Shown here piece by piece: positions 8,045 to 64,000 of a DNA stretch of 64,000 bases. This stretch comes from Proteromonas lacertae (Eukaryota). Position numbers and translations under genes: made by a program. The notes beneath the pieces were generated by a model that saw only the letters and a program-made list of their open reading frames with translations, was not told the origin of the DNA and searched no databases. The stretch lies in the NCBI GenBank assembly GCA_002245135.1, contig NGBS01000025.1, forward strand, positions 1-64,000, written 5' to 3'. The stretch's first letter is position 1, and each line of letters begins with the position of its first letter.

Positions 8045-8121
8045 TTATTAAAATAACTAAATTAATACTCTACTTTGTTATTATTTTTTATAGAAGTAAT
8101 GGTTATATATTAATTCTATAA

Positions 8122-27911: not shown

Positions 27912-28209
27912 CTAATATGTTTTATTAAAATTCCTTATTATTGAAATGTTATATTATGGTGAGATAAATGTTATATAATAAAAAATGTAATATTTCTACA
28001 TCATATTTTCTATTTAATTAATCCAATAGAAAAATTTTTCTTTTGACATATCAACTTTAATAGATGTTGTAGCGAAATGGTTAATAAAATCAACTGAACA
28101 ATCTAGAATTCCATTTTTCGCATGTGGTTTATATTTTGTGTTTATTTTAATAAACAAAAATATATTCGTTTCATTTAAAACGAACATATTTTTTCAATAT
28201 ATTTTTAAA

Positions 28210-40577: not shown

Positions 40578-40759
40578 TTATTGTTTTTAAATATTTACTA
40601 TTTTAATGTAGTTTTTTTTAAGAAAAATGAAAATCAATCAAATCAAGGCTTGATCATTTTCATTCTTCATTTCATTTTTTTATATCAATGACAAAAAATT
40701 AAAATTAAATAATATTCACATAAAGTAAATTATAACTATATAATCTAATTAGATTATAC

Positions 40760-41872: not shown

Positions 41873-41898
41873 TTTAGCAGTGTTTTTTGATTATCAAC

Positions 41899-42357
41899 CT
41901 TCATTACTCTCAATATTAAACTAATTTTCTTAAATTCTCTATTTTAATATTTCAATTACTACTACTGTCTAAAATACATTATTTGATATGAATATATTAT
42001 AATAAATTTTACAACAGCTTATTTAAAAAGGAAATAAAAAAGTAGGCTTGAATGAGGTTTGCATTCATTTTTCGTTTTTCGTTTTTCGCTACCTTAACAT
42101 CAAAATTAGTGTATTCTATTCATATCAAATAATGTATTTTAGACTGCAGTAGTGATTGAAATATTAAAATAGAGAATATAAGAAAATTAGTTTAATATTT
42201 GAGAATAATGAAGTTCATAAAAAAGTGTATCACAGATGCAGGTCATATGACAAACTAATTGTATATTTGTTAATAACTCGTTATAACTAAGATAAAAATG
42301 ATATTAGTTTGTTTTAAAAGTAATTGTATGATGAGAGCGGCTCAACGGCGTATAATA
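41899..42357. mobile_element. Repeat family A copy (fold-back) in the spacer of the second inverted duplication
   Basis: ~95-bp inverted arms, 41899-41994 vs 42117-42213. Ends TTAGTTTGTTTTAAAAG..CTCAACGGCGTATAATA. 42003-42310 aligns with 60685-60954. Confidence 0.8.
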
Positions 42358-42948
42358 GAAATGAATAATCATATAATGAAGTTTCTTAAAAATAAAAGTT
42401 TTTTGACATCTAATTTACGTGCTGCACCTTCTGGTTAGAGTCTTATTGCTTTTATCCTAGATAGTTCAGAAAGATTACTACAACTATTCACTATAAAAAT
42501 ATAAACAAATAAAATATAAAATTATGATTTTGTTTATTTACTATTTTGCTCATACCCTCATAAGTGTTATAATTAGCTAATAAACAATATTTTCCTATAA
42601 TACACTCTATCACATAACTACATATATAGCTTAGAAATTCAGGAAGAATAAATTATAAATATGCAAAGTACAATATATTTAATCCATTTTTGGTTTTCAA
42701 TCTCAACTCCATGGTTATAATAAACAATTCAAATTGCTATATTTACATATCAATTATTTATAATAAATACATATGTAATACCTCAACAAATATAGTAGCA
42801 AATGGAAATTCCAATAGTATGTATTTATAGAAATAATATATATTTAACGAATATGTATATCGAATTTTATTCTTTGTTTTTTTCAAAGATTTTAAAAAGG
42901 TTGATAGTTGAAAATATATTCGTTTTGTAATCAAAAAACACTGCTAAA

Positions 42949-44166
42949 ATGAGCTACGTCAGTTTATTCTTTGACCCAAGCATTAATTGGAAGAGCTCTT
43001 ATAGAAGAAATAATAAAACTACACAAAATAAGCATATTTTATGCTTTCCAGACCATATAAATTTCAAACATAGAGTATAATTCGTTAATATGATTTTTAG
43101 AGCACGGGATTTTGTGGACAAAGTATTAGAATAAAAGTATATAATAATTGCAACGATACATTATTTGTTTGTGGTCATTTTTCATATTATTTAAGTCCAA
43201 ATGAAATTGATGTAGGTACAATAATTCCTATTACTTATTTTGATGAGAATGACAGAATGGAAGCACCATTTTATTTTGGAAAGTCCAATGTATAATTAAT
43301 GTTGTTATTTAATCATATAATAGGATAGTCGAAATGAATTCGTATTAAATGAAAGATATAAAGCATGGATGTTTAATTTAAAATGGCCAAAGAAAGAATC
43401 TCAATATTGTTTTAATGTTTTTGGAATGATCTATGATTCAAATATAAATTGTTATAAATGTGTATGTAGAATAAGTTCACCTCCATTTGCTCTTACTTCA
43501 TCTCGAAATCAGCAAAGAAAGAATAAAGAAAAAGAAAATAAATCTTCAATGAAACTTCTGACTATACCTCCACCATTATCCTTAAAAATCACATCAAATA
43601 GTTCAATTATCCTATCTCCCTTACTAGCCAAATACTTTCCATTTATAAAAAGAGGAATTGAAGACATAATAAACAAAATTGATAAAGATTTACCCAATTA
43701 TTTATCTAAACTGCCAAATTATAAATCTGATGATAATATAGTAATAAAATATAAAGATGATAATAGGAAAGTAGAAAAAATAATGAAATGTGAAAATTGT
43801 ATGCAAGCTTTACTAGAATTCCTAGAATCAAAACCAGAACAGACTTATAGACAGTATGATTTATATAAATTCATATGTTCAAGTCCAGAAGAAAAATACA
43901 ATTATTACAAGACAATGATAAGTATGGATATTAAGTCAGAAAAGTATTTTAGAAAATATGATGGAGTTAGTTGGAATATGAGACATGTTAGTGATATAAA
44001 TGTATCAGCTGAAAGAGAAGAATTATCGTTTGTTGGTGATAGTATTCCTAGTTTTATATCCAAATATAATAATAATATGTACTATTTAGATAAATATGGT
44101 AATAAATGCAAAATGCCACAAATATGCCTGTTAGAGTATTTACAAGTACATCAATTAATTAATTAA
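42949..44166 (+). CDS. Hypothetical protein, paralog B (385 aa, 3 exons); beta-rich N-terminal domain followed by a basic NLS-like stretch
   Basis: Exons 42949-43074, 43101-43289 and 43324-44166 splice in frame; ISSPPFALTSSRNQQRKNKEK. Confidence 0.8.
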
Positions 44167-44287
44167 ATGTAATTTAATTTTATGAAATAATATTTTACAT
44201 TTATATATCTGTAGTATAACAATTGGTTTACTTTTTGATGTGATAAAATGAAATGAAGAATGAAAAATTCAAGCTCTGGTTTGAATT

Positions 44288-47200
44288 ATGTTGATTTTAT
44301 TTTTCATTTTTCTTAGTGTCTCAGCTGATCCCAAGATTAGTGCTGAGGCCCTTAGTTCCAGTGAGTTAGCAGTATATGTAGATATGACTAAACAAGAAAA
44401 GAATGAGATTAAATCAATTAAACTAGAAATAGACACAGGCACATTTACAGAAGAGACTCAGATATTTAGATTAACAAATAACCCAGACTCTATGGCTTTT
44501 TTGCATGTAAAAACAGTAATTGACAATCCCATTAATGAAGCTCAATCCATTGTTTTATATCATGGTTTAATACCAAAGAAGATTGCTTTTTCGATTGTTA
44601 ACCCATCTGGAGATCGCTTATCAGGTACTTTTACATTTGATTGTTATAAAAATGGAGTATTTGTAGGTGAAACAACTGATTTAACTCCATTAATGCATCC
44701 ACATAATGTTCAGCTGTCCATAAATGAAGCATGCAAAGAAGAAATAGAATCTGTTACTATAGATAAGTATAATTTTATTAATTACTATGTTTTATTTTAT
44801 AGTGGAGTATATTATGTAACATTTAAACAAATTAGTGCAAATACATTGGATTTATTACTTCATAAGAACAATTTATCTCCAAATTCAGCAACTCTGTTAA
44901 TTCAACCAATTCAAAAGACTCCCTCCATAACTGGATTTTACTATATATTAGATCAAGGTCATCGAACCCCAGCAATACCATGGAATGCCACATTAGATCA
45001 ACTATATGCTGCTTTACACACTTTACCCACAATCGAAGGTATTAATGTGACTTTGACAAATCATCCAATATATACAAATGGTGGTAGAATAATTTCAATT
45101 ACTTTCTTGCCATTTAACAAGTATATTTTATATAAATGATTGCTCATTTTCTACTAATAGATATAATACACATGAGAAATTGATTATTCAAAGTGAATTA
45201 CATGGAGAAGGTGTTAATATAGTTGTTTGTGAAGGAAATGTAATTATTGATAATATATGTAAAGATATTCCATCTCATAAAGGATCAATGGTAAGTGGAC
45301 ACTTCAGTATAATTAATCCAACAAGTATATATATAAATATATTAAATATCAATTAATAGTTGTTCCAAAAGGAAGAAGAAGAAGAAGACAAGTTGTACAT
45401 AATTCAATAACAGTAGAAAATGGAATGGATATAACTGAATTACAAAATCAACTAAAGACAATAGAATACAACTGTATTATATCTCGTAGTGGACCAGATA
45501 TTTATAACGGATATATTTTCAGTTTATCATTTCCTTCATTAGATTTTTTACCCCCAATGTTAGTGAATAGTGATGGTTTAATAGGAAATGTAATAATAAT
45601 AAATGATACAGGTTATCCACAAGAAATCCAACAAATTGTAGATGCAAAATTACGTCAATTTTATTTACAATTGAAAGGAGAACATAAATACATATCAGAA
45701 GCTGTATTTTTGAATTATAAACAAAAAGATAATGAATGTGATGAAAAGATCAAAAATGCTCTTGAAAAAATGCCAAATATTGGAAGTGTAAGAGTGAATT
45801 GTATTGATGATGGTGAAACAATGAATAGTTTTATAACTTTCCGAGAAAAGAGTGGAGATATTACACCATTATTTATACCTGATATTGTAGTAAAAACAAT
45901 AATTCATAGTAACAATTTACCATTAAGTGGAGAATTTCGAATTGGATATGATGGAGAATATACAAAATATTTACCAATTAATGTGAATAGTGAAATATTA
46001 GAAAAAGCATTAAGTGATTTACCAACAGTTGGTAAAGTTTCCGTTGAAGATAAAGGATGTAGACCATTGGTGAATAATGGTTGTGAATGGGAAATTACAT
46101 TTATCCATAAGATTGGAGATTTACACAAATTATCCTTTGATAACAGTCGAATAAAAGGTACAAAACCTTATGGATGGTTATATGAATTATCTGATGGTGA
46201 ATTACCACCGTTTAATAGTTATCGAGGTGGTGCAAGATATAATAAAATGATTAATATTGAAAATAATAATGACAATACAATGAATATAATATTTGATAAA
46301 TTGAATAATGGTGTTATTTATTATATAAGAGGAGTTGTCACTTATCGAAATCAAAAGAGAAAGAGAAAAGCGATTTATAGTGTTCCTTTGATGATTAGAC
46401 CATCATTTATTGTACCAAAAACACCCAAAATGACAGTTGAATTAGAAAATGATAATACATTGAAATGTATATGGCAAAATCCAATATATTATAACGATAG
46501 TTTGATTATTTCACATTATGAATTATGTTGGAGTTATGATGATTTATATAATAGAAATTCAAAGTGTAATTCAATAGTAATATCATATAATAATGAAAAT
46601 TATAATCAAAAAATCGAGAATATTGATAAAAGTAAAATTATTTATTTGAAATTATCAATTTATTATATTTGTAATGATAAAACATATTGTTCAAATACAT
46701 TACCATATTATACATCCTATATACCTGTTGAAATAAAACCAACTAATGATTATAACAATTATTATCGATTATTAGATATTTCACCAACAGTTAGTGATGT
46801 AACGGATAGTTCATTAAAATTAACTTGGGATAATATTCCAACTGATGTAATTACAAAAGAGAATATATTAAAATATAAAGTGTATTATTGTCATTTAAGT
46901 AATGATGATAATTATAATATAAGAAGAAGAAGTCATGATTTACCTGTTTTACTATTCAAAAAGAAATGTAATTTATTGAAAGAATTAAACAATGAAAATA
47001 CATTTTTGAATGTAATAAAGTTGAATAGTGAATTATATCATTTATTCTTCGTTGAAATCTATGAAAAAGAAGAAAATAAAATATCATTAATGCAATCAAC
47101 AAACTCAATATCTTTAAAGTCAAAATATGATATATCTTATACAATAGTATTAACCAATAATTATACATATGATTTGAATAAAGAACAACAAATATTATTA

Positions 47201-50200
47201 TTACCATCATATTATAGTGGAAAAATATTATTTAGATTTGATAATAATGAAAATAATGATAATTATAAAGAATTTGAATATAATCAATCAGTTTCAATCA
47301 ATGAATTTAGTAAATTTTTAAGTGATTTATATATTAATAAAGAAAGAATTGGTTCAATTATCTTATCACATGATAGTTATTATGATAAAACAAGATGGTG
47401 GCTGAAATATCAAAAATATGGAAATATACCAATACTAATAGCTAGAATAATGATAGATGAGAATAATTATGTTGAATATAATAGTTATGAGATAGTAAAA
47501 GGAGAAATAAATACAATAGATTTTGATTTATATAAAAGTATTAATCAGAAAACAAATGAGAAAATAGAAAATTTGAATTATTTTATTGAAATTTATAAAC
47601 TGTTAGAGAATGGAACATTTGAATGGGTTGAAGATACACCTCAACCACAATTACAAAAACCAATTTATTATTCAAAATATTACACTATAATCAATAATAA
47701 TAAGTGTAATTGTGATATATCATTTATATATGAGAATAAACAGAGTGAAAAGAGTGTTAAAATCAATGAATTAAAAAGTGAAGATATAATTTCAATGTTA
47801 AATTCAATCGGAATAAATGAAGATCAATATAAATACATATATCACAACAATCCAATAGAATTTGAAATATTCTTTTATATATCAACAATCAATATCAACC
47901 AATTCAATATGATATTATTAAATAATGAAGAATGTGAATTATCACATTCATCGCAAAGTTATCAATTATTAAATGATGATAATTTCTATTATTCCACCAC
48001 ATTTTTACCTTATGAAGATATTCCTTATTATATAAATATATTAGAATTACATCAAGGTGGTCTAATTGGTTATTATTATGATAATATGTTTTTATATAGA
48101 AATCCATATAAAGTAGAAATCAACAGTGAAATTAATTATTTGAATTATCCAATCGTTAAATCATATTCTTCAATTAAATGGATTGGAAAATTAAAAGTTG
48201 AAGTTAGTGATGTTTATAGTTTATATGTAGAAGGTGAAAAAGGTATTCGATTATATATAAACCATAAACTATTCTCAGATCATTGGATTTACCCACAATC
48301 TGAATATGGAAGAGAAATATACTTGGATAAATCAATTTATTATGATATAGTAATAGAATATTATAAAATGAACAGTAATTCATCATTTGCATTCTATTAT
48401 AGTTCGAGTACAATTCCAAAGACAATAGTTCCATCAACATGTTTATATTATACAATTGAAATGAGTGAAAAACCACAATTAATATCGAATATCTCAAATC
48501 AAGCTTCTTATACAACATCATTCACATATGGTTCAGGAATTGATTCACCAAAAAGTGAAAAAGAAAATATATTCTTTATCCAATCAAAATATATTGATGG
48601 TAAAATTAAATTAACAGATGGTGATAATTATGAAGTATATATAATTGATAGTGAGAATAAGAAAGAATATTTGAATGTAGAATATGTAGAAAATGGTTTA
48701 TATTCAGTGAAATATCGATTAAATGAAAGTGGTAATTATGTAATTTATGTGAAATTGAATGGTCATAATCTATGGTGTGGTTATAATCAATTATTACCTT
48801 GTTCTCCTCATTATATTAATGCAGTTCCAGAAAATGTAAAATATACAAAAATAGAGGTAAATTTACCGTCATATGGTAATGTAGAAGATTTTATTCAATT
48901 TAATGCAATTCCCAAAGATGATCATGGAAATATAGCTGTTACAAATGAAGATAAAGATAAAGAAAATGAATTTGAATTATATATGATTTTACAATCAAAT
49001 GATTCTTATAGAATCAAATGTAAAGTGAATGATTTATTAGATGGAAGATATTTAATCGATTTTATACCTTTATTAAGTGGTTATTATTATCCTGAAGCTA
49101 GTAATGTGAATGGATCAATTAGAGTAATAAATGAAGAAGAAAAATTACCAATTATAAAGATTAAAACATTACCATTTTCATCAGCAAATACTCAATTTTT
49201 GAATGTTGAAGAGAATAATTATAATGATAATAATAATAATGGAATTGGCTATATTGATATATTATTAAATGATAAATACAATAATCCAATTACAACAGAT
49301 TTAAATGATATTATATTAACAATGAAGATATATAATGAAGAAAATATAATTTATACTTCATCAATATCATATAAAATGATATTTAGTAATAATAATATGG
49401 ATGGAAAAGAAAGTAGAAATACATTTTCATTGAAATATAACTCAATATCATTGGATAATTTACCTTTAAATATCACTAGTTCAGCTTTAACATCATTATT
49501 ATTATTATCAATTGATGAAAATGTGAAAGTAAATATTATTGAAGATTATAATGGTGATAAAAATGAGAAAATATTCATCATTATAATAATCTCACCAAAT
49601 TATGTGAATTTAGAAATAGAAAATGATAATGTTATAAAGTTAATACCATTAAATACAGATAATTACTATCGATTGTATTACCAAACAACTGTAAGTGGAA
49701 AATATACAATTGATTTGAAAGTAAAAGATGTTGATATTGATAAACATCCCCAAATTGAAATAAATAATAATAATCAAAAGATTGATTATTTACAAACAAG
49801 AATAAAATATGAAAATTCAGTAGAAGCTGGTAAAGAAGGTAATATTGAAATGTCATTTTATACATCCTGTCAAGTTGATAAATATGTATTAAAAGTAGAT
49901 ACAAAGAAATTATCACCAAATGAAGGAGATAATAATAAGATTGAAAGTCAAAAATATCAATATTATAGAATAATAATGAATGATAAGAAAAGAGGATATT
50001 TTCAATTGAAATATAAAGACAATTATAGTAAAAGAATATCAAATTTAGATGAAATAGAGAATGAAATAATGTCATTTAATCTTAGTAATATTGAGATATA
50101 TAGTAATAATAATGATGATGATGATGAATATATGTTAATGACAATTTATAATGAAGAAAATGAAAATGAAAATGAAAATACAATTGAAATAGTGAATAAT

Positions 50201-52333
50201 ACAAAAAATGGATTGGTATTTGAATTATTAGAAAAAGGTGAAATGATGAAAAAGAATTATTATCAATTAAAAATAAATAACTATACATCAATACCTAAAC
50301 AGATTTCCAATATAAATATCAATGAAATAACATCATTATTGAATAATTCAAATGAGATTGAATCATTTGATATTTATGAAAATAAAATAGAAGAAACAGT
50401 CTATTTATATACAATAATAATAAACAAATATAAAAATATAAATCAAAATGAATCAATAGAATTGATAAGTGATTCAAAATTAAATGGTGCAATTCAATTG
50501 GTTCATATTCAAAATTATCTTCCACCAAAACCAATAATATTTAACCATGAAATTCATTCAAATATAAACATTAGTTTATCACTTACTCCAACAGTTAATA
50601 ATGATAATGATTATAATATTACAGATAGAAATATAGTGAAATTGAAATGTAATAGTAATGAAAATGTAAATATCACAATAATATTTGATGAAATAATGTT
50701 TAGAAATTTTACATTTCCTTCAAATATCACTATTGAAGAATTAAAGAAAGAAATGGAAGAAAATGGAATAATATTGAATATTATAAAAGAAAATAATGAA
50801 AATGATTTACTATGTGATAATAATAGCGAAGTTACAATTACAAATACAAATTCATCGTTTAATATGCTTTATTCAAATAATAACAACAACAACAATTTAG
50901 AATTTAGAATAATTAGTTTAGGAAAGATTAAGTCAAATTTGTATGAATTAGTTGATTCAAATCCTTTTACAATCAAATTTACATTTTCTGCTTATAAAGC
51001 AAAAGAATATGAAATTAATTGGAGAATAAATGAAGAAAATGATAATTACTTCACATCTTTTAGATTAAGAAATATTTATATTTATCCAAGCAAACCATTT
51101 GGATTAAAATCAGTTCATAATTCTCCCAATTTTGGTTTTGTTGGAATTTCAATAGAATTTAATGTTTATTTATATGATAAATACTCCAATCCAATAACAA
51201 CAATAGAAAATGAAACAAATATAATAATGGAAATAACAAATAGAATTAATAATTATACAACAGATAGAATCATTCCAGAAATAGAAAAAATTAGATCAGA
51301 TAATAACCAAAATGATTATTTTAAAGTGAAATTTGTATATAGCAAAAGAGGTCATTTAGTAGTGAAATTATTACTTGAAGATAAAGGATTAAATGTATTA
51401 TACTATCAGGATCAATTCACTGAATATCCAATTTTAGGAAATTCATATCATTGTCCAATAGAATTTGTGAATTGTAAAAGTACAGATGTAATAACACATT
51501 TGAATGAAACAAAATATGGAAATACTATTAATAGAAAGAGAATATTAGATAATAATGAAATAGTTGAAGATTTAGTTTATAGTGTTAGTTATTATGGATA
51601 TATAATAATTCCTGAAGATGGAAAATATTTATTTTTATTTCCATCTAATAATGGAGTAAGAATAACAATAGATAGAGAAATAATATATAACAAATGGATA
51701 AGATATAATAATGAAGTTGTTATTGATAATAAAATCTTGACAAAAGGAAAACATGAAATATTTATTGAAACTAGACCATATGATGTGAATAATAAATTGG
51801 AATTATATTTCTATTGGCAATATAATGATGATAATAATAGAGAAATAATACCAGAAAGTTCATTTAGATATATAAAGCCAATTCAAAATGGTAATTTTAT
51901 TGTTGAAATATTACCAAATGAATTGATTTATAATTACTTTATGGAATATTTATTGTCAAATTCATCATCATTACAATTGAATGAAATGAATAGTTTATCA
52001 ATGAATTATACTAACAATGATTTATTGAATATAATAATGAACAATTGTGAATTAAGTAAAGAGAATGAATTGTTTAATTCATTGTTATTTGATTCAATAT
52101 ATAAAAGTAAATGTGAAAATGTGAAATATAGTTTTAACTCAACAATCACAGATGAATTGATTAATGTTGATTTAGTAAAACACTATACAGAGAAAAGAAA
52201 TGAAAATGAAAATAGAGGAAGAAATAGTAATGATGATAATGAGATTGTTGATTTATCATATAGTGAATGTTGTGAATTGATTGGAGTTCAAAATAAGAAT
52301 GAAAATATTGGAAGAAGAAGAAGAAGGCATTAA
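44288..52333 (+). CDS. Giant secreted/surface protein with FN3, two PA14 and filamin-type Ig domains (~2650 aa)
   Basis: Signal peptide MLILFFIFLSVSA; VSDVTDSSLKLTW (FN3); GGLIGYYYDN..SIKWIGKL..GIRLYIN and KGLNVLYY..GVRITID (PA14); YGSGI..NGLYSVKY..GNYVIYVKLNG (filamin); introns 45121-45160 and ~45325-45359. Confidence 0.85.
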
Positions 52334-52509: not shown

Positions 52510-53472
52510 TTATTCAATTTTTAATATAGAAATAATACATTTCTTTATGTTCAATGCGTTTTCAATATTTATTCCATGAATAGCTAAAGATAAATAATAA
52601 TCACTACATTGGTTAAAATTCCTTTTTCTTTTATAATAACTATTTAGTTTTATTATTGATATGTTATAATTTTTGAAATAAATACCCATTTGAATATCTT
52701 CTCTATATATTAGTTTATTACTTTTTATATCTATATTGTTTATAAATCTAATCCATGAAGGAAATATAGGAAGTATATAAAAATTACCAGCAACAAATTC
52801 AGGCAGTTTATTATAAGAATATATTGAGAAAGGTATATAGTTTGTATCATTTATATTTCTTTTTGTATGCATGGATGGGTAATAAAATCCATATATTACA
52901 TTTTTATAATAATTATTTATATTTATGTATAGGTTTATTAATTGAATATTAGGATAAACATCACTATCTACTCTTAATATATAATCAAAAAATCTAAAAT
53001 TGATTAATGTCCAATTATAAAATAGAATTGTTATTAATGTCAAATTGAAGTAGCTATCAAAAATAGAAAACTGAATAACATCCTCTTCTATTTTATTAAT
53101 ATTATTACTATATCCTGCAATAAAGATGATTTTATAATGCAATATAATCATATCTTTTCCCCATGTATATCTAATTATTTTTCTTCTGAATGTATCTTTG
53201 ATACATATAGGTATAACTACAAGATATTTATAGAAATCATATAATTCTATATTATGTAATGTAAAGAATATATGTGGACTGTTTAAGTGAATATTATTAC
53301 TCTTGCTTTTATATTTTTGACATTCTTCTGAATTTATATCTTTACATGCTAAATAATGTAAAAGAATAATAATAATTAATAATGAAATATTTAGATTAAA
53401 TATTTTAAATCACACAAATATAAAATAAAAATATATAACATAATATTCTATTTGAAAAGTAAGCTTAAACAT
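52510..53472 (-). pseudogene. GT31 (beta-1,3-galactosyltransferase-like) glycosyltransferase; 5' end interrupted by an in-frame TGA
   Basis: RRKIIRYTWG, DSYFNLTL, RVDSDVY, PEFVAGNFY, EDIQMG. The frame is open from 53409 and includes signal anchor ISLLIIIILLHYLA. The in-frame ATG at 53472 is separated from it by TGA at 53412-53410. Confidence 0.75.
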
Positions 53473-53602
53473 TCATCAAGAGTTAGTGTTAAAGAAACCC
53501 ATTTGTTTAATTTCTACACAAGATTTATGAAAAAAAAATAGCATACATAAAGCTGATATAGTATAAAACATCTGTAATATAATAAACATATAGTATAAAA
53601 AG

Positions 53603-53906
53603 CAGGGCTGTAATATAAGTAAAACCTATAATCTAGCCTCGAGCATTATTTTGTTAAAATCAATTTTAATTACTTACTGAGTAACATTTGTTCTATACAA
53701 ACTATCATACTATATAAAATATTATTCCTACTTCCTGCTTTACTTTAATTACCATAGTTAGAATAAGATTGGTTGAAATTGTATAGATATTTATACTAAT
53801 ATATTAAAATTCATCTACAAACTACTCAATAGTGATATTTAACATATTTATAAACAACTTGTTATTTTGATAATTAATTTATATTGATTACTTCTAAAAA
53901 CCAAAT
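53603..53906. mobile_element. Truncated second copy of the hAT element end
   Basis: Starts CAGGGCTGTA; ~300 bp closely matching 6884-7233. Confidence 0.88.
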
Positions 53907-54021
53907 ACATAATAACCATAATATAAAAAAGACTTGTTGTACTTAATTACTAAATTAATTTCATGTTTCGGAATAAAGTAATATCCTAAAGCTTAGGGTA
54001 TTACTTTGATCTCTTTGATTA

Positions 54022-54650
54022 ATGGAAAAATCAGGTGCTGATACCTCTGTTCCAGGTCATTCCAGAGCATATGGTGATGCTGTTCATAGATATTTAAATG
54101 AAAATGAAAATGATAATGCCAAAACAATCCTAGATTCCTACAATGGCAGAATTTACCAGACAGATATGGTAGATATTTTAGATATGTTCCAGACTTTTTA
54201 AAAAAGACGTTGGACTTATGACAGATATCCTAATACTCCTCGTAGAGCTCTATATAAGTTTATGAGATTACAATATATTCCACAGATCATCCAATATTTA
54301 AAATAAAACCTGATATACAGAATGACCTTATATATGGAGAAAATGATTAGGAGTAAATAGAATGTATTTATAATCTCCAGGATGGCTAATGAGGTTTTTT
54401 AACGTAAGTATAAAAATGTGAATACACAAAAAAGGCAGGAATGGGATAATTATATAGAAAAAACTCCTCCACCTCCAGTACAAGAAGAGGATGATGACAA
54501 AAAAGAAAACGAAGTGAAGCTGTTTTTGATGAGGATGATGTAAATTATGAAGTTTGCATCAGATGTCAAGAAGATGAATGATCTCATGGAATTATTGGAT
54601 GCTAAGATTCCTTATTTTAGGAAGATTGAAGAGCAAGGATCTCATTAATT
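54022..54650 (+). pseudogene. Unidentified decayed coding sequence
   Basis: Less AT-rich, codon-like stretch (MEKSGADTSVPGHSRAYGDAV.., EWDNYIEKTPPPPVQEEDDD) broken by stops and frameshifts. Confidence 0.35.
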
Positions 54651-54919
54651 AAATGATAATGATAATCCCCTCATTGTTAGTGTTATAGTTACTTCGAATC
54701 CTTTTCTATAACATTCCCTTCTTTTCTAGTCTATACTATAGTCTAGTCCCCACACAGTAGCGGCTGGTCACATAGACTGATAATCACTCATAACATGGAC
54801 TGAATTTTTTACTATAATGATATATAAGGAAAGGAATTTGAATTTCATCATCAAAGACTTTTCCTCAAGTCAATATCGAGGAAAGGATTTGAATTTCATG
54901 CATTTATATTATACACTGG

Positions 54920-55158
54920 GATGATTAAAATACATTAATTCTAATTAGAACACCCTTAAAAAACAAATAATAAAATTAAATTCAAGCCTCTTTCAAGCCA
55001 ACAATTTACATTCTTTTAGACAGGGATAAGTAAATATTCTTTAATTCTAAACATCTCAGTTAATATATTTTAGTTTCTAGTAGTGAATGAAACACTTAAT
55101 CGAAATTTCATTAGTAAGAATATGCATTTTGTTTGTTTTAAAAGTATCTGGTAAACAA
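54920..55158 (+). mobile_element. Degenerate repeat family A copy
   Basis: TTCAAGCC..TTTACATTC, TAATATATTTTAGT and AAGAATATGCATTTTGTTTGTTTTAAAAGTATCTGGTAAACAA match 2430-2713. Confidence 0.7.
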
Positions 55159-55241
55159 TAACTATATTAGACATAATAGTAAAAGATGCTGTTATTGATT
55201 AACCATCTTAACTTGGTACTTACCAACTGAAAATTTAAATA

Positions 55242-57077
55242 ATGAATTTTAGAAATGATTTACAGTGTGTTAGATTTTTTGCTATGCTTTTTGTTTTCTA
55301 TTTTCATAAAAAGAATAAATATTTTAAAGGAGGATTTATAGGTGTTGATATATTCTTTACTTTATCAGGATATTTTATAACAGGAAGTTTAATAAGAAAA
55401 ATAAAAGAAAGAAAGTATTATGCACTATTCTATCGAGGTAGAATACTTCGTTTACAACCTATGTCAAACTTAATGTTGTTTTTAATATATATTATATCTA
55501 TATCAAATCCATATATTTCTTATAAAAGAGCAAAAGAGATATTATCTTGTTTGTATTCATATGCTAATTATTACTATTATTACATATCAGTTAATTATTT
55601 AGAACAATCAATTTCGCTTAATTCTACTCCTTTATTACATTATTGGTCCTTATCTATTGAGAATCAGTTTTATTTAATATGGCCAATTGTGATTAGATTA
55701 TTATCTAATAAATATTTAAATTATTCTCTGCTTATACTGTTCAGTATTGCTTTCATGTTTTCTTTGTTAATAAGCCATAAAAGAATAAGTTATTCATATT
55801 ATTCATTTGAAGTTAGATTTTGTGAATTGGTATTTGGATCATATTTAACTATAGCACATAAAATAAATATAGTAGAGCGTCATTTTTTATATGATTTTTT
55901 TATAATCACCATGTGGATAATAAGTAGTTATATATGTTCGCTTGGTAATTATCCTAACTACAGAATGATTTTTCCTTTAGCAACCTCTTTCTTAATGTTA
56001 TATCAAGATCCTAAGAGTTATTCGTTATTTTCAGTAAGATTATTCCAATATTTAGGGTCTATATCTTATTCATTTTATATAATACATTATCCAATAATTA
56101 GTAAATACCCACAAGTCACTCTATACATTGTAATAATAATGAGTATTTCCTGCTTTTATTTAATTGAAGATAATTTTGTGAATTTAAAGATATCTTTGTA
56201 TAAAACATTTTCCTTTAGCTTATTGAGTATTATTTTTATTACATTTCTTCAATATAAATCTATTAAATATTTTCAAAAAAGAAATTATAATTCCGTTAAC
56301 TGTACTAATGCTTTTCCAGCAGATGATAAATTCATTTCAGAATGTATATTTATTAATACTAAACATAAAATACAAAGAATGGATAGAACGTATATTCTTT
56401 TGGTAGGAGATTCACATTTGAGACAGTGGAATGAAATATTGTTACCTATATATAAATCTACAGGTTTGTTTGTTGTATTTATTATATTTTGGATTAATTA
56501 TTTTTTAAATGACAACTATTTGATAATGAAAAGAGTTGTAAGTATATTAGGAAATCCATATTATACTTATGAATCTTTTTATTCAAACCCCAAATATAGG
56601 AATATTGTTTTTCTAAAGAATTACATATTATTTAATTATTATCTAGCTAATATCTCAATAAAAGTGATTATAATAGTTGATAATCCTTCATTAAATTATA
56701 ATCCTCACATATATTATACAACAAATGAAAACAATTCAAACTTATTTTGTATAATAAATATAAATTGCACAACAGATATACAACCAATTATTAATGTAAA
56801 TAATATAGCGTATATAAATCTTACATCTCATTATTGTTCAAACAATAAATGTTATATGTTTAAAGATGGATATAGAATATATTCTGATTCTCATCATTTA
56901 ACTAATTGTTTTGTAAATATACTTAAACAAAATCTATATAAACAACTAATGTTTTTAGACAAAAGCATTTATATTACTAAGATTGATAACATTTCTTATT
57001 GCTACATACAATATGATTCATTATATAAAAAGTTTTCACATTCCATAAATGAAAAATTGTCATATGTGAAAGTATAA
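55242..57077 (+). CDS. OafA/YrhL-type O-acyltransferase (Acyltransferase_3 + SGNH), second paralog, intronless
   Basis: RNDLQCVRFFAML, GGFIGVDIFFTLSGYFIT, PLLHYWSLSIENQFYLIWP, VGDSH, DSHHLT. Confidence 0.92.
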   Translation: MNFRNDLQCVRFFAMLFVFYFHKKNKYFKGGFIGVDIFFTLSGYFITGSLIRKIKERKYYALFYRGRILRLQPMSNLMLFLIYIISISNPYISYKRAKEILSCLYSYANYYYYYISVNYLEQSISLNSTPLLHYWSLSIENQFYLIWPIVIRLLSNKYLNYSLLILFSIAFMFSLLISHKRISYSYYSFEVRFCELVFGSYLTIAHKINIVERHFLYDFFIITMWIISSYICSLGNYPNYRMIFPLATSFLMLYQDPKSYSLFSVRLFQYLGSISYSFYIIHYPIISKYPQVTLYIVIIMSISCFYLIEDNFVNLKISLYKTFSFSLLSIIFITFLQYKSIKYFQKRNYNSVNCTNAFPADDKFISECIFINTKHKIQRMDRTYILLVGDSHLRQWNEILLPIYKSTGLFVVFIIFWINYFLNDNYLIMKRVVSILGNPYYTYESFYSNPKYRNIVFLKNYILFNYYLANISIKVIIIVDNPSLNYNPHIYYTTNENNSNLFCIININCTTDIQPIINVNNIAYINLTSHYCSNNKCYMFKDGYRIYSDSHHLTNCFVNILKQNLYKQLMFLDKSIYITKIDNISYCYIQYDSLYKKFSHSINEKLSYVKV

Positions 57078-57096
57078 TCAACAATAGAAATTATTA

Positions 57097-57312
57097 TTGT
57101 ATATGTAATAATTCTTTTGATATACTAATATCATATTTTAAATATTTACAAGAAGATGAAATATCAAGTTGTGTAACTCTTGTAAACCAAACATAACTAT
57201 CCTTTTTATCATTGTTTATTATTTCATCAATATCACTATTAATTATGTGTCTGCTATTGTTATAACTTCTGTATATACAATCATTAATTTTTAAAATCTT
57301 TCCAAAATATTC
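57097..57312 (-). pseudogene. GT92/DUF23-like glycosyltransferase relic
   Basis: The minus frame reads EYFGKILKINDCIYRSYNNSRHIINSDIDEII, the NDC.YR...DxDE pattern of GT92; stops immediately upstream. Confidence 0.5.
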
Positions 57313-57585
57313 TTATCACATATTGCAATGTAACTAATAATCTTATTTGAAAAAGTGTGTCTGCTGAGTATGGAATGAAATATTATCTTAATCTATGCAA
57401 TAAATTTTTGTTTAATAAAACTTTTGAATTGTTTCTTTTTGTTACACAGAATAATCAATTATTTCGTGATTAGTCACATAATATCTATAATGTAGTGCTA
57501 TATAAAAACAAAATAATAGTATATTAAAAATATATAAATTCATTATATTGTAAATATAAAGGTAAAAAATCTTTAAGAAATTCAA

Positions 57586-58395
57586 ATGACTAATGAATTA
57601 ATGTTATATTCAATTATTTTTATTATTATGATACATATATATATAAAGTCTAATACTTATTATACAAAAGATTGTATATCATTAATATTACCTTCAACTG
57701 AAAATGACTTTTTAAAATGTTATAAACAATTCTTTTATTTTCGTAAAAGTTTACTCATAGCAAAAGAAGTTATAATTGTAGTTAGTTCTGTTACAAATTC
57801 TACTAAAATAAAAGAAATTATAAAAAATATATCTTATAAAGGTAAGATAGTTCTAGGTATTAGAAAAAATAATCATAATGCAGCTTCAAATAGAAATTAT
57901 GGATTTGAACTGAGCAAGTGTGAAATTATTTCTTTTTTTGACATGGATGATATAATGTCAATAAATAGATTGTCTATATTGCAAAATGTATTCATAACTG
58001 ATGAAAGAACAGAATTTATTTTACACAAATATACATACATATGTAATAATATTAATAATAATATAAACCCTAAATATTCTATACATTACAGATATAATTT
58101 CTCTTTTCAATATATACATAATTCTTATAAATATAGTAAATTTAATGGAAAACATGGAGTTTGGTGTTGTTACTATATAAAAGAAATAAGTCAAGAACTA
58201 ATTCATAATGGATGGCCTACAATGCGAAGGTATGTTATGGAAAGAATAAAGTATAATGAGAAGGAAAATGTTGGTGAAGATTCTAATTTTAATGCAAGAG
58301 TAATATTAAGTGGTTATAATGTATCTATTCTGAATATTAATTTGGGATATTATATTAAGAGAAATTTATGCTTATTCTATCAGAAATGTTACTAG
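57586..58395 (+). CDS. GT2/GT-A glycosyltransferase with signal anchor, intronless
   Basis: EVIIVVS, NAASNRNYG..SKCEIISFFDMDDIM, GEDSNF. Confidence 0.8.
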   Translation: MTNELMLYSIIFIIMIHIYIKSNTYYTKDCISLILPSTENDFLKCYKQFFYFRKSLLIAKEVIIVVSSVTNSTKIKEIIKNISYKGKIVLGIRKNNHNAASNRNYGFELSKCEIISFFDMDDIMSINRLSILQNVFITDERTEFILHKYTYICNNINNNINPKYSIHYRYNFSFQYIHNSYKYSKFNGKHGVWCCYYIKEISQELIHNGWPTMRRYVMERIKYNEKENVGEDSNFNARVILSGYNVSILNINLGYYIKRNLCLFYQKCY

Positions 58396-58430
58396 ATTTA
58401 GTTTTTGAATAAATTAAAGAATACTAAATA

Positions 58431-59453
58431 TTATAAATGCTTTAGCATATTGGATAAAGAAAATCTACAGTTTGAGTAATTCATTACCTTTTCTGATAAT
58501 ATAAGAGGATTGAATGTAATGTTCAGTATGTAATTTAAAATATCAAAAGAACCTGATATATTTGTATCTAGTTCTTTTAAAAAACTTCCATAACCTTCAT
58601 CTATAAATTCTATCTGATGAGATATAGGCCAAACGCCCATCAGTTTCATTTCAACCAATGATAGCGCACCAGTATCATAAAAAGAAAAATATATGACAAA
58701 TTTTGACTTATTAGCTAAATTCATTAGCTTTTGTTTTGAATGACTTCCATATCTTAAAATTTCTATTTTGTAATTCTTTTCCCTTAAGTAATTTACTAAT
58801 ACTCTTTCATCATTTACTTTGGATTGATCTGCGTATTTTATATATATTAATACATCTATAGATCTTTGATTATAACCATTTATTTTAAGTATTTCTTTAT
58901 TTATTTCAATACATGGCTTTAATAGTAGATATTTAAAGTTGTAGAATTTACATTTTGTGTAATGTTTTATATGATTTTTAACTCTGTTTGAATGAACAAT
59001 ATATGCTTTTATTCTTTTCATTATAATACACCAATACATTTCATAAGTATTATTTATAGGACTATTAAACCATTTTATAGGAGTAACAATTGGTCCATAT
59101 AATATTCTCCTAAACATCTTTCGATAAGAATTATTATTAATTTGAGTAATAAAGTAAGGTAATTCTAGCCATATAAATGTATTTTTATTATTTATCAATT
59201 TTAGGATTACATCTATAGATATTGTTTCTTTATGAAATAAAATGGCTATCTGAGTTAAAATTTTGTCTTTATTCCATTTATATATTGCATATTTTATATA
59301 TCTTGATAGAGAAGAAGGACCTCCTCTTCCTTTACTTGGAAATACGACATATAAATATATTTTATTTCTCTTTCTTTTATATAAAATATATAGCATAAGA
59401 GATATAAACAGAAATTTATTTAAATTCCAACTTCTATTATAAATATCTTTCAT
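58431..59453 (-). CDS. Putative GT-B fold (GT4-like) glycosyltransferase with signal anchor, intronless
   Basis: GRGGPSS, ILYGP, LANKSKFVIYFSFYDTGALSLVEMKLMGV (variant of the EX7E motif). Confidence 0.65.
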   Translation of the reverse strand: MKDIYNRSWNLNKFLFISLMLYILYKRKRNKIYLYVVFPSKGRGGPSSLSRYIKYAIYKWNKDKILTQIAILFHKETISIDVILKLINNKNTFIWLELPYFITQINNNSYRKMFRRILYGPIVTPIKWFNSPINNTYEMYWCIIMKRIKAYIVHSNRVKNHIKHYTKCKFYNFKYLLLKPCIEINKEILKINGYNQRSIDVLIYIKYADQSKVNDERVLVNYLREKNYKIEILRYGSHSKQKLMNLANKSKFVIYFSFYDTGALSLVEMKLMGVWPISHQIEFIDEGYGSFLKELDTNISGSFDILNYILNITFNPLILSEKVMNYSNCRFSLSNMLKHL

Positions 59454-59586
59454 TTATTAATATTTATAATTAACAGATTGTAAGATTGACATTAATCTAA
59501 GATAAAAACTATTCTATATTAATACTAAAATGATCTACAAAAATGATATTAATATAGAATAATTTCTTTATATATCAAACTCTAAA

Positions 59587-59811
59587 TTGGAAATCATATA
59601 TAAAGATTTATTATCTTCATTTTGTGGTTATTCTAATATTCATTTTTATCAAAAGTCAATAGATTACTTTGGAGATCCATTAAATCAATCATTAAATCTT
59701 CATTACTGGTATTATTGCTTACAAGAACAATATTATCTTTTGTTTGCAGTATTTATATTACAAAGAAATAATAATGTACAATATATTGTAGAATTTACAT
59801 TATTTCTATAA
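59587..59811 (+). pseudogene. Third OafA-type acyltransferase, internal fragment
   Basis: DLLSSFCGYSNIHFYQKSIDYF..LNLHYWYYCLQEQYYLL aligns with DAIACL..ANYYFYFNKIDYF..PLLHYWSLSLEEQFYLI of 3848-5635. Confidence 0.75.
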
Positions 59812-59905
59812 TCAATGTTGTTTATATTTAAATAAAAGAATTCAAGATTAATTCCTTCATCTTAATTATATTTGTCTTTTATAATGTAAAGGTAGTATAT
59901 AATTT

Positions 59906-60616
59906 ATGTTTGCTAAAAATCTATTAATTCTTTTAGTTATTCTATTATTTTTAAGTATTTGTAGTAGAAATGAATTTAAGATATTAAAAAGGTCATATAT
60001 AAAAAATGTATCTGAAAAAATAAAAAGGAGAGAAGATTTAGGAAGTTGGCTTGAAGAAGAAAAATTTGAAAGTGGAATAGAAATAGGTGTACAGAATGGA
60101 TATTTTTCTAATGTTTTAATTAGAAAATGGAAATCATGTAAATTATTCATAATGGTAGATCCATGGTCGAAACAGAATTTCTATGATGATGCAGCAAATG
60201 TTGATGATTCTCAACAAAATCATTCTTTTCAAAATGCAATAGATGTAGTTAAAAAATATTCAAAAAATGTAGAATTTGTAATTCTCAAAACTACCAGTGA
60301 AAAAGCAGTAATTTATTTAAACAATCAGCAATACGATTTCATTTATTTAGATGGAAGACATGATTATAATAGTGTAAAGAATGATATAAAATATTACTAT
60401 CCTTTAGTTAGACCAGGTGGAATATTAGCAGGACATGATTATCAAGATGAAAATGGAAATGAGTGGAAAATGGATAAATATGGTAATGTTAATAATAATA
60501 AAAAAGCAGTAAAAGCAGCAGTTGATGATTTTGCATCTGATAATAAATTAAATATAATTACAACAAATGAAAGGAATTACAAAACGTGGATGATTAGAAA
60601 ACCTATATATATTTAA
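59906..60616 (+). CDS. Class I SAM methyltransferase (Methyltransf_24-like) with signal anchor, intronless
   Basis: GIEIGVQNGYFS, MVDPW, DFIYLDGRHDY..VKNDI..LVRPGGILAGHDY, VKAAVDDF. Confidence 0.88.
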   Translation: MFAKNLLILLVILLFLSICSRNEFKILKRSYIKNVSEKIKRREDLGSWLEEEKFESGIEIGVQNGYFSNVLIRKWKSCKLFIMVDPWSKQNFYDDAANVDDSQQNHSFQNAIDVVKKYSKNVEFVILKTTSEKAVIYLNNQQYDFIYLDGRHDYNSVKNDIKYYYPLVRPGGILAGHDYQDENGNEWKMDKYGNVNNNKKAVKAAVDDFASDNKLNIITTNERNYKTWMIRKPIYI

Positions 60617-60684
60617 AATAAATTACATAATCAGATATCTTATTATTGGGTGATTCATATAATATGACGTGAATAAAATACATA

Positions 60685-60954
60685 TAAATTTAATAACAGC
60701 TTATTTAAAAAGGAAATAAAAAAGTAGGCTTGAGTGAAGTTTGAATTCATTTTTTCATATATTCATATCAAATAATGTATTTTAGACTGTAGTAGTGACT
60801 GATACATTAAAATAGAAAAAATAAGAAAATTAGTTTAATATTGATAATAATGAAGTTCATAAAAAAGTATATCACAGATGTAGGTCATATGACAATCTAA
60901 CTATATATTTGTTAATAACTAACTCGGAACATCATAAATATCATATTAGTTTTG
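60685..60954 (+). mobile_element. Repeat family A partial copy
   Basis: Direct, closely matching copy of 42003-42310 (AACAGCTTATTTAAAAAGGAAATAAAAAAGTAGGCTTGA..CACAGATG.AGGTCATATGACAA). Confidence 0.85.
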
Positions 60955-61660
60955 ATTGAATCATTCTGCAATGTAGAGTTCAGACATACGGGGATTTCCG
61001 CTATAGGGGAAGAACAATTTCATCCAACAAAGATGATTATCACTTTTACCATCACTTTTAAACAAAAAACAAATTTTTTGACTCAAAGAACTAATACGAA
61101 CGTCAAGCTCAAATTTGTAGTTTTATATATTCTCATATAATTTCATCTAATAAATACACATTTAAAGAGAATTTTATATACATAATTTTTATTACAGTAT
61201 ATAATTATACATTAATAAAATATTACTATCTTATCTTTTTACTTCTTTATATATATGCATAATGTTTATATATTTAAATAAACCATTTTCGTTGTTTAGA
61301 TAATCCTATAATATCAATTAATAATAATAGATTAACCCATAAGATGATTTTTATGTTTAATATGCAATTATGCTTTGTATGTGCTTGTTGAAAGACCTTT
61401 TGTTATAGTATTAATCTTTACATAATATCCTAATTTAATAAAATATATTTGTTATGTTATGATGCTATAATTAATTCAAATAGAATCAATAATATTCTCA
61501 ATTCAAGAATATGCTAAGAAGTATAAATAGTGTATAATAATAGTGAATTTGTATGTCTGAAAAAGATTTACATTATCAACAATGTAAAAACTGTAAATAA
61601 TGTATTGAGTTCGAAATTGGTAGTTATTACTTTATAATTTGAATATTTATAATTAAATAA

Positions 61661-62488
61661 ATGAAAAAATTTAAAAGTATATATGATTTAATAGGATGTG
61701 TAGTATTTATTATAATTATATTAAGTTATATAACTTCAACTTTTAAATATCTATCAGTTATATTATTTAGAGTATCATTACCTACTTATAATCAATTATG
61801 TAGAATTGTAATATATAAAAGACAATTGCCAATTACTTATAAAGTTGTAATTTTAACTGATTCAATTATAAATAATAGTATTTCTATTGATACTTTCTTT
61901 GTTGATCGAAAAGAAGTTATAAATAAATACCCAGAAATAAAAAGAATGGGTGGTGGTTGTAAAAATAAATCTGATTCTTTTTATATGTGGTTGTTGCATT
62001 CTGAACATTATTTATTGTGGGATAATATATATCATTTAAAATACAAATATTTATGGGTATTTGATCAGGATGTAATTTATACAGGAAATATCTATAACTT
62101 CTTTAAAAAATATGATAAATATAATGATGATTTAATAACATATCATTACACTCCATATTATTCAAAAGGATGGCATGATTGTGTCACAGAAGAATATAGA
62201 AAAAGCAGATCAAATATGACATATTATGTCGCTACTCATTTTCATAGACTATCCAAAAACTTGATAAATGCATTAAAAATGGAATTTAAACTTAAAAGAC
62301 ATGCTCAAGTTGAACAAATGATAATAGAAACTGCTTTATATTATAATTTAAGTATTAAAAAAATGGATAAAATAGATTATGATAAAAAAAGAGGTTTTGG
62401 AAAATGTATATATACTAAAAAAGAGTATGATAATCTAATAAATGAAAATTCTACAAAAAATATAATATATCATCCTGTGAGATACTAA
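61661..62488 (+). CDS. DUF3405-like putative glycosyltransferase (DxD) with signal anchor, intronless
   Basis: YKYLWVFDQDVIYTGN, HRLSKNLI, HAQVEQ, IYHPVRY. Confidence 0.55.
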   Translation: MKKFKSIYDLIGCVVFIIIILSYITSTFKYLSVILFRVSLPTYNQLCRIVIYKRQLPITYKVVILTDSIINNSISIDTFFVDRKEVINKYPEIKRMGGGCKNKSDSFYMWLLHSEHYLLWDNIYHLKYKYLWVFDQDVIYTGNIYNFFKKYDKYNDDLITYHYTPYYSKGWHDCVTEEYRKSRSNMTYYVATHFHRLSKNLINALKMEFKLKRHAQVEQMIIETALYYNLSIKKMDKIDYDKKRGFGKCIYTKKEYDNLINENSTKNIIYHPVRY

Positions 62489-64000
62489 TGCTATTCTCCG
62501 ATTTTGTTTTATATTATTATGGTTACTATTTACTATTATGCTGCAATCAGAAAAGAATAATTGATGAGGCAAAAACTAACAATAGTATTAATAATTAATA
62601 TATTCTAGATTTAAAAGCTATATGTTTTTCAATTATATATTATAATCAGCTATTAGAAGATGGAATAAAAGAATATATAAAAAGATCTAAAAGAACATTA
62701 CACAAATATAAAACCTTAAACTGTTTTAAGATAAATCACATATCACATCCTCAAAGTATTAACATATCTTATTTGGATAATTCATTTATAAAGAATGAAA
62801 AAATTGGCGTGGATAACATACAAAAATGTGGATTTGTCCTAGTTGCAGGTGGATTAGGTGAGAGACTGAATTTAGATTCAATTAAAGTACATATTTATAT
62901 AATATATTTTTAGTTATCTTTAAATGTAGATCAAATCAGTGGATTATCGTATTTGAACCTATATTTTAATTATATAAAATCATATCAAACAAGTAAAAAA
63001 TTTTCAGCACATGTATGTATAATGACTTCACAGTCTACTGATAAAAGTATTAAACATTATCTTGAAGAAAATAAATACTTTGGTTTAAATAAAAATGACA
63101 TAATTACAATTCAACAAATAAATGTCCCTTCATTTCGTGATGAAGATTGTAACTTACTATATGATAATTACAAAATTGTTACTAAACCTCATGGACATGG
63201 TGATATTCATTATCTATTGTACTCTGTATATAAATATTTATATTGTAGAAAGGAGTGTTAGATATATGGAAAGCAAAAAGTTTAGATTATATAGTCATTT
63301 TTCAAGACACAAATTCACTAGCATTTGAAGCAATTCCTGTTTTAATAGGAAGTACTATAGATAATGGTGTAGATGTTAACTATTTAACTACAGAAAGATT
63401 TAAAGGAGAAAAAGCATCAATTCTATGTTCTTGTAAAGAAGAAGGTAAATATTATAATGTAAGAGCAATAGATTATTCTCTTTTACCAAAACTATTTGGA
63501 GAAGATATAAATAATTGTAATAAATCAGAATCTCAATATCCAGCTGTAACAAATATAATATGCTTTAAATTAAGCTTATATTATGATACATTAAAAAATC
63601 GAAAGATATCACTTCCAGAATACATATTATCTAAAGATTTTAAATCATTCAGACTTGAAACAATTCTGCAAGATTATATATTACTTACTGATAATAATTC
63701 GAAAAATATTAGTCTAAGTCTACCAAGATGGTTATGTTTCAATCCAGTAAAAGAAATGTCTAACTATTCTGATTTTTATACACCAGATAGCGGAGAGAAT
63801 AATATATATATTAAAAATTGTAAGAAATTATCTCAATTAGGATGGAAAATAGGAGAAGAATGTGCTATTATTATAGATCCTTTAATTAGTAATACAACAG
63901 ATAGAATTGTTGAGCATTTTAAAGGAAATATAGTAATTGGAAATAATTCTAAGCTTGTTATAAGCGGAAATGTTTATATAAACAATTTGCGCTTACAAGG
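62488..64000 (+). CDS. UDP-sugar pyrophosphorylase (USP-like), divergent; runs off the window end
   Basis: GFVLVAGGLGERL, IMTS, LEENKYFGL, QQINVP, TKPHGHGDIHYLL, FQDTN, RLETILQD, FNPVK; introns 62585-62608, 62887-62913 and 63226-63248. Confidence 0.88.

Follow-up and report, generated by a model that had tools for sequence, protein, structure and literature searches.

Bacteria, giant viruses and Mamiellales algae are all known to carry clusters of surface-glycan genes, and among fungi one pathway is organized in this way. We describe here a cluster of glycan-related genes in the nuclear genome of the protist Proteromonas lacertae. All coordinates refer to positions 1 to 64,000 of contig NGBS01000025.1 (assembly GCA_002245135.1, forward strand), a 64,000-nucleotide stretch hereafter called the window. 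The cluster occupies 52510-64000, and a second one lies 44 kb away at 3078-8946; we refer to both as islands. In the reading that we favor with moderate confidence, the span at 52510-64000 is one of many small, repeat-marked accessory glyco-islands whose products act in the secretory pathway to assemble and modify a surface glycan. No such islands were found described for Proteromonas, Blastocystis or opalinatan gut protists in the literature covered, from which Eme 2017, the Lind preprint in its first version and the 2023 genome paper on P. lacertae were absent. If the islands differ between isolates, coat variation in a gut protist would become directly testable.

Judged by gene content, the nearest counterpart of the islands appears to be a chromosome type of Mamiellales, the small outlier chromosome (SOC), exemplified by chromosome 19 of O. 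tauri (PMC5082852, PMC3491373). Like the islands, the SOC carries glycosyltransferases (GTs), including GT92 and beta-3-galactosyltransferases, methyltransferases including FkbM, and sugar genes; it too has few introns and paralogues shuffled among contexts, and it has been proposed to vary surface glycans. It shows modular shuffling and no synteny. The SOC differs in being a complete chromosome, 100-290 kb long and low in GC, for which co-regulation in virus resistance has been demonstrated. The P. lacertae islands measure 6-12 kb, flank a 43-kb core block, have host-like GC content at third codon positions (GC3), contain AT3-SGNH acyltransferases and belong to a likely gut stramenopile.

Bacterial O-antigen and capsule loci with OafA, OafB or OatA share with the island an AT3-SGNH protein bearing R-X10-H, RxxR and Ser/Asp/His residues, and a side-by-side arrangement of GTs, O-methyltransferases and a nucleotidyltransferase (PMC9558356). 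In these enzymes an acyl group supplied by acetyl-CoA in the cytosol is picked up by the membrane domain, and the SGNH domain hands it on to an extracytoplasmic sugar; on/off loss of acetyltransferases changes bacterial serotypes, and the acceptor of eukaryotic AT3 proteins was not known according to the same 2022 review (PMC9558356). The decorating enzymes of the island likely work as their bacterial capsule and O-antigen counterparts do. The island is unlike the bacterial loci in lacking operon orientation, Wzx/Wzy/ABC export and an initiating transferase, in its eukaryote-type GT31, GT92 and UDP-sugar pyrophosphorylase (USP), in its N-terminal anchors and in a best bacterial identity of about 30%.

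The fungal GAG cluster is likewise a eukaryotic cluster that makes and modifies a surface polysaccharide; it differs in being a five-gene, co-regulated and conserved set with a synthase and a deacetylase, drawn from other families than those of the island (Lee 2016, PMC4817252). The fibril clusters of Megavirinae resemble the island in their clade-variable mixture of nucleotide-sugar, GT and decorating genes, and differ in being viral, in serving capsid fibrils and in encoding rare amino-sugar pathways (Notaro 2022, PMC10117803). The island, unlike the viral clusters, lies in a nuclear genome, its USP has introns, and viral genes were not recognized in it. Nematodes have large expansions of AT3 acyltransferases, GT92, GT31 and FkbM-type methyltransferases that are tied to the cuticle coat. 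Those families are intron-rich and either dispersed or in single-family tandem arrays, and are not known to form mixed islands. AT3 genes have been noted in C. elegans (PMC9558356).

Seven open frames, five on the forward and two on the reverse strand, make up 7620 of the 11491 bases of the island at 52510-64000, and the gaps between them, of up to 1.8 kb, contain repeats and relics. Five identities are firm by Pfam (GT31, AT3-SGNH, GT2, Methyltransf_24 and UDPGP/USP), whereas those of a GT-B gene and a DUF3405-like gene are probable only, their Pfam matches lying below the cut-off. Two relics (GT92 and AT3-SGNH) accompany the seven genes, among which GT31 has a doubtful start. A preliminary description, made from the letters alone, had called every identifiable gene or relic glycan-related. 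The five firm calls were borne out by Pfam matches with E of 1e-18 to 5e-9 (SGNH 2e-7, UDPGP 2.5e-10) and, for USP, by solved USPs. Both relic calls held as well, GT92 scoring above the Pfam cut-off (E 1.7e-5) and the AT3-SGNH relic being 56% identical to a relative, P0008. The GT-B and DUF3405-like calls stand in part, on look-alikes at 0.96-0.97 against Pfam E-values of 0.11 and 0.003. The statement as a whole applies to the seven genes and two relics, and not to a decayed open reading frame (ORF) at 54019-54720 or to three repeat copies in the span.

Clustering was compared with chance using nine published P. lacertae family counts, which amount to 249 of 23,189 genes, come from another annotation and have no row for Methyltransf_24 or DUF3405. 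At these rates, the expected number of runs of seven glycan genes is 4e-10 per genome (4e-3 at tenfold abundance), and eleven such genes within 64 kb have a probability of 4e-14 (3e-4 at tenfold abundance). For the five firm genes alone, hand arithmetic at the same rates gives 3e-6, rising to about 0.3 at tenfold abundance. The clustering is thus non-random unless the families are far commoner than published, and the concern that local density might be expected by chance is answered in favor of a real cluster. The seven genes belong to seven different families and therefore did not arise by tandem duplication. Among the ORFs of 52.5-64 kb no Wzx flippase, Wzy polymerase, ABC exporter, processive synthase, initiating transferase or epimerase was found, although the locus may continue past 64000. 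There is also no nucleotide-sugar or SAM transporter in 52510-64000, and the island therefore relies on genes elsewhere; eight nucleotide-sugar transporter genes are listed for P. lacertae (PMC12129017). An Rfam scan gave no matches.

The GT31 galactosyltransferase-family ORF (52510-53409, reverse strand; PF01762, E 7e-18) has a DxD motif at residue 148 and an N-terminal hydrophobic stretch. There is no in-frame ATG upstream of this anchor, the first Met being codon 87, so that the start may be damaged, lie beyond an unusual 5' intron or reflect a sequence error. The GT92 relic (57097-57312, reverse strand) is a 72-codon fragment between stops, with 25 bits to PF01697 at a cut-off of 23. The GT2 gene (57586-58395, forward strand; 269 aa; PF00535, E 5e-9) encodes a GT-A enzyme with an N-terminal anchor and a DxD motif. 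It converges with the GT-B gene, 35 nt away. This probable GT4-like enzyme (58431-59453, reverse strand; 340 aa) matches PF00534 (Glycos_transf_1) at E 0.11, and in a language-model atlas its look-alikes score 0.96-0.97, some in clusters with PF00534. A D-X7-E motif was read from the sequence at what we take to be its usual place. Searches with the GT-B protein found nothing among PDB sequences, in phages or plasmids, or in 3 + 401 genomes, the 401 being from one phylum. Neither it nor the methyltransferase matched in viral scans, and tblastn of the DUF3405-like and GT2 proteins against phages was also without a match.

The Methyltransf_24 gene (MT24; 59906-60616, forward strand; 236 aa) encodes a SAM-dependent methyltransferase with an N-terminal anchor (PF13578, E 5e-16) that also matches rhamnosyl O-methyltransferase/CmcI at E 5e-5. 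The DUF3405-like protein (61661-62488, forward strand; 275 aa; PF11885, E 0.003) has an N-terminal anchor and a DxD motif; its atlas similarity is 0.97, with 14% DUF3405 in the look-alike clusters, and it is a probable GT-A-type enzyme. Single-sequence folds gave a pLDDT of 39 for the GT-B and 32 for the DUF3405-like protein, both too low for use.

The last gene, a divergent USP, extends on the forward strand from 62488 to the window end at 64000 and runs off it (UDPGP Pfam, E 2.5e-10). Its best matches are solved USPs (E 4e-11 and 6e-13) rather than UGP or UAP, and the nucleotide-binding loop and core motifs are present. Three GT-AG introns of 24, 27 and 23 nt (62585-62608, 62887-62913 and 63226-63248) leave 479 open codons to the window end. 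Its ATG overlaps the DUF3405-like stop by one base (62486-62490), a prokaryote-like arrangement in a nuclear genome. A search for the C-terminal part of USP among longer proteins found none at E<=0.001, which is weak evidence. A signal-anchored USP was also considered and rejected at a hydropathy of 1.12. N-terminal hydrophobic segments are clear in four of the five non-polytopic enzymes (GT31, GT2, MT24 and DUF3405-like), weak in GT-B and absent from USP, so the anchors claimed for most of the genes stand for those four, with the reservation that GT31 has no ATG before its anchor. Six of the seven genes are intronless, USP being the exception as had been described. Long single open frames also occur in the core (an EML-like protein of 2162 aa, a 1548-aa ORF and a 2338-aa PA14 ORF), and the lack of introns alone therefore does not mark the island.

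An intact AT3-SGNH (OafA-type) O-acyltransferase is encoded at 55242-57077 (forward strand; 611 aa; PF01757, 1e-18; PF19040, 2e-7). Motifs were defined as R/K-X10-H, RxxR and the SGNH Ser/Asp/His, following PMC9558356, and were located as R11-X10-H22, RxxR at 67-70, GDSH at 389-392 and DxxH at 549-552. A second intact copy lies in the other island (3848-5635, reverse strand), and the relic is at 59563-59811 (forward strand; tblastn identity over 79 aa to P0008, E 2e-23). In both intact copies AT3 is fused to a C-terminal SGNH domain, just below the cut-off in the copy at 3848, and R-X10-H, RxxR and the SGNH Ser/Asp/His are kept. The three copies represent three sub-branches, the relic belonging to another than its intact neighbor, and the intact two are 25% identical.

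A single-sequence search with AT3-SGNH returned 593 hits, the top four being Logan proteins 38-55% identical, and among the best 150 representatives of a profile search 23 passed an AT-rich composition cut. A FastTree phylogeny was built from 65 rows (the 2 window copies, 29 AT-rich sequences and 34 others picked from hits of <760 aa). One side of a branch with support 100 holds 29 rows including both window copies, and two AT-rich rows fall outside. When the AT3 part was analyzed under a mixture model, with 20 clade rows and 17 controls, the support was 88; this tree has no root, and its long branches ask for caution. Clade members share a median pairwise identity of 27% (range 19-71%), with the catalytic positions retained in 23-28 of the 26-28 rows covering each. 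Look-up of 18 clade representatives gave Logan records throughout, one cluster also having a 50-aa ENA member. Searches of 59 viral, 80 metagenome and 80 GTDB loci for close relatives gave best matches of only 22-36% identity, distant and apparently prokaryotic or phage; the one AT-rich locus, L061, adjoins an ABC transporter and falls outside the clade. Because the best matches are so distant, a bacterial origin of the clade is likely but would be old, with no donor nameable. The phylogenies asked for by the preliminary description thus yielded, for AT3-SGNH, a separate AT-rich clade and no source. By these sequence criteria the clade is old and diverse with its catalytic residues retained, and this intronless radiation, with at least 27 further sequences, offers ready test enzymes.

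The second island contains different members of the same families, and two islands within 64 kb speak for our reading. Besides its AT3-SGNH copy it holds a DUF3431 protein (3078-3779, forward strand; PF11913, E 7e-14), an FkbM methyltransferase in two frames (5965-6847, reverse strand) and a TylF sugar O-methyltransferase with an N-terminal anchor (8122-8937, reverse strand; PF05711, E 6e-46). The FkbM gene is split at a (TA)7 tract (6325-6338), and the frame changes exactly there, either through a sequencing slip or as a slippage-driven on/off switch. Repeats are common to both islands. Repeat R1 (53637-53907) is 91.6% identical over 275 nt to a copy at 6959-7233, and an exact scan of metagenome contigs for R1 found no matches. 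The fold-back repeat R2 is present as a fragment at 55025-55158 (89% over 46 nt to 2668-2713) and as a copy at 60659-60952 (forward strand; 77% over 334 nt with 93% blocks), the latter with relatives at 41978-42310 and 2345-2693. The R2 family sites at 2176-2693, 41912-42199, 55025-55158 and 60659-60952 have hairpin arms of 98-188 nt; R2 elements are possibly the ends of non-autonomous transposons. A family of short palindromic motifs (AAAACCTA / GACCG) was seen at 5850-5915, 6900-6960 and 7835-8030 and also at 53621 and 60598.

Published counts place these genes in large families. P. lacertae has a genome of 27.0% GC (Lind 2025, PMC12129017); Table S5 of that work lists 70 FkbM, 12 TylF, 7 DUF3431, 6 AT3, 1 SGNH and 5 HELP genes, all of which are given as zero in 8 of 8 Blastocystis genomes. 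All six of these families are present in the 64-kb window. For families shared between the two lineages, the same source gives 59 GT31 genes against 7-26 in Blastocystis, 48 GT92 against 1-17 and 14 USP against 2-7. All island families but two are published multi-copy expansions in P. lacertae. Its table for P. lacertae and Blastocystis has no InterPro row named for O-antigen, capsule or polysaccharide biosynthesis. The family contrast suggests that coat chemistry changed sharply within the group.

The composition of the window is continuous with this background. GC ranges from 20 to 33% by kilobase, and GC3 is 0.10-0.16 in island genes and 0.12-0.19 in core genes. Introns seen in the window are 23-37 nt long, and 17 candidates of 22-44 nt came from a pattern scan of 31-40.6 kb; the opening part of the published annotation file has P. 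lacertae introns mostly of 24-46 nt (PMC12129017). Gene content, GC and these introns fit a Proteromonas-like opalinatan; an assignment to Blastocystis was rejected, because the six families absent there occur in the window and purA is only 57% identical to a tortoise isolate. One difference between islands and core lies downstream of the genes. In 7 of 11 core genes (for example those with 3' ends at 13995, 25544 and 52333) the stop is followed within 70 nt by the motif TTGTTT, versus 1 of 10 island genes, against a background of 8% (Fisher p 0.024), a comparison in which the motif was chosen after looking, as one of four tried, and some core gene ends are uncertain. A downstream element of Blastocystis resembles TTGTTT, and Lind 2025 reports no enrichment of it in P. 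lacertae (PMC12129017). Its scarcity in the island may point to different 3' processing or weak expression.

We picture the accessory glyco-islands as follows. USP enzymes supply UDP-sugars, and anchored GT31, GT92 and GT2 enzymes work in the Golgi. The island USP would accordingly make UDP-sugars in the cytosol, and the anchored GT31, GT2 and GT92-type enzymes would extend glycans in the Golgi lumen. AT3 would draw on acyl-CoA in the cytosol and bring its acyl group through the membrane, with SGNH transferring it to a sugar on the far side, so that the Golgi lumen would take the part of the bacterial periplasm. Anchored methyltransferases would O-methylate the same class of lumenal glycan, and the product would be a surface or cyst coat glycan. 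Each island would hold a mixed set of genes from expanded families, which enter, move among and drop out of the intervals between core blocks, and this turnover could alter the coat in ways that counter host lectins, antibodies, viruses or gut bacteria. The families may be kept together by selection for co-inherited or co-silenced sets or by shared insertion sites; both fit. A fixed pathway is less likely than birth-and-death turnover, given the mixed orientation, the relics, the shared repeats and the presence of three unrelated AT3-SGNH sub-branches in 64 kb. Also in favor of this reading are the lower coding cover of the islands, their broken frames, the published family expansions, the core-like GC3, the non-random clustering and the Mamiellales precedent. 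The proposal of a secretory-pathway system for an acylated and methylated glycan is therefore retained as a non-random cluster with likely O-acylation and O-methylation, and not as one capsule-like locus.

Several observations weigh against this account. The idea of many islands draws on two islands, published counts and unplaced Logan proteins, and the substrate, location and expression of the island products are predictions. Of 11 expected helices, a simple hydropathy scan detected 5 in one AT3-SGNH protein and 3 in the other; both proteins are Tyr/Asn/Ile-rich. The nearest annotated relatives of MT24 in our searches are phage genes, at 30% identity and in a non-glycan neighborhood. Residues of the USP sugar-binding (substrate) loop differ at several places from solved USPs, and the enzyme may be altered or inactive. 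The one-base overlap of the DUF3405-like and USP genes hints at tighter coupling than accessory islands need. The purA gene of the core is 92-96% identical to 7 Logan proteins and 57% to tortoise Blastocystis. A purA tree from 41 of 121 rows is uninformative on the lineage, with support 76, long branches and few non-fungal rows.

The strongest competing explanation, which we nevertheless hold to be unlikely, is a dedicated, co-regulated cluster for one coat glycan that is swapped whole between strains as a serotype-like locus. Activation, transfer, acylation and methylation functions lie within one span and come from seven different families, a chance neighborhood is excluded by calculation, and the one-base overlap and the 35-nt gap indicate close packing. 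Precedents exist in the five-gene fungal cluster and in co-regulated blocks on the outlier chromosome of O. tauri. Yet both strands are used, relics and repeats are interleaved, the GT31 start is doubtful, no transporter, flippase, polymerase or epimerase was found among the span ORFs, the families are multi-copy in P. lacertae, and a second island lies in the same window. The single capsule- or O-antigen-like, serotype-like locus first envisaged for this span is not supported in that form: two defining features of such bacterial loci, export or polymerase genes and operon organization, were not seen among the span ORFs.

An extension of the accessory-island reading is equally tentative. It would make the islands a serotype system of repeat-flanked, exchangeable glyco-cassettes, combining the old, bacterial-type AT3-SGNH radiation with anchored O-methyltransferases; gene loss and slippage at dinucleotide tracts would act as the switches, so that isolates would differ in the O-acyl and O-methyl pattern of the coat. 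We consider this joint claim improbable as it stands.

Recent insertion en bloc from a giant virus, phage or bacterium, with the genes now decaying and mostly silent, is less probable still. Six intronless genes, the scarcity of TTGTTT and the viral clusters among the look-alikes of the GT-B and DUF3405-like proteins fit such an event (likeness of this kind is no sign of transfer according to the tool), and giant viruses have glycosylation clusters of 6-33 genes (PMC10117803). However, island GC3 equals that of the host, USP has host-type introns, no viral hallmark gene was recognized in the window, the AT3-SGNH matches in the three sets of loci are distant, none of 11 other island queries matched those 219 loci, and the AT3-SGNH clade is apparently old, diverse and catalytically intact. 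Finally, a chance neighborhood of abundant families, or a contaminant or mis-joined contig, is very improbable: the families are abundant and the borrowed counts may be too low, but runs of seven stay rare even at tenfold abundance, composition is continuous, the repeats recur elsewhere in the window, and USP with its introns lies directly next to an intronless gene.

The 43-kb core block between the islands encodes an EML-like WD40 protein, purA, ARID/zf-CW/zf-TAZ, LRR genes and PA14/filamin. Coding cover is 88% in the core, with core introns counted as coding, and 55% and 66% in the islands. A PA14/filamin protein of 2338 aa (45317-52333, forward strand) directly adjoins the island at 52510, and a Cys-containing repeat protein of 1548 aa with a C-terminal membrane segment (9143-13789, reverse strand) directly adjoins the other. 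These two very large, likely surface proteins could be glycan carriers.

Elsewhere in the window, the decayed ORF at 54019-54720 (forward strand) has 7 stops in 234 codons, had no Pfam match at E<=1 and belongs to no recognized family; GC in its region (54001-55000) is 31%, compared with 20-25% around it. Two inverted duplications lie in the core. The first (25686-28061) is near-perfect, with 1056-nt arms at 99% and a 264-nt spacer, and carries two identical, outward-facing genes for 228-aa secreted He_PIG membrane proteins. The second (40737-44189) has 933-nt arms at 96% and places a 245/280-aa gene, without a Pfam or PHROG match, around a central R2 fold-back repeat. At 423-1482 (forward strand) there are two ORFs, one with a weak Ulp1/SseL-like protease match (E 0.006) and a higher GC3 of 0.27, which are likely part of a mobile element; 79 Ulp1-domain genes are counted in P. 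lacertae (PMC12129017).

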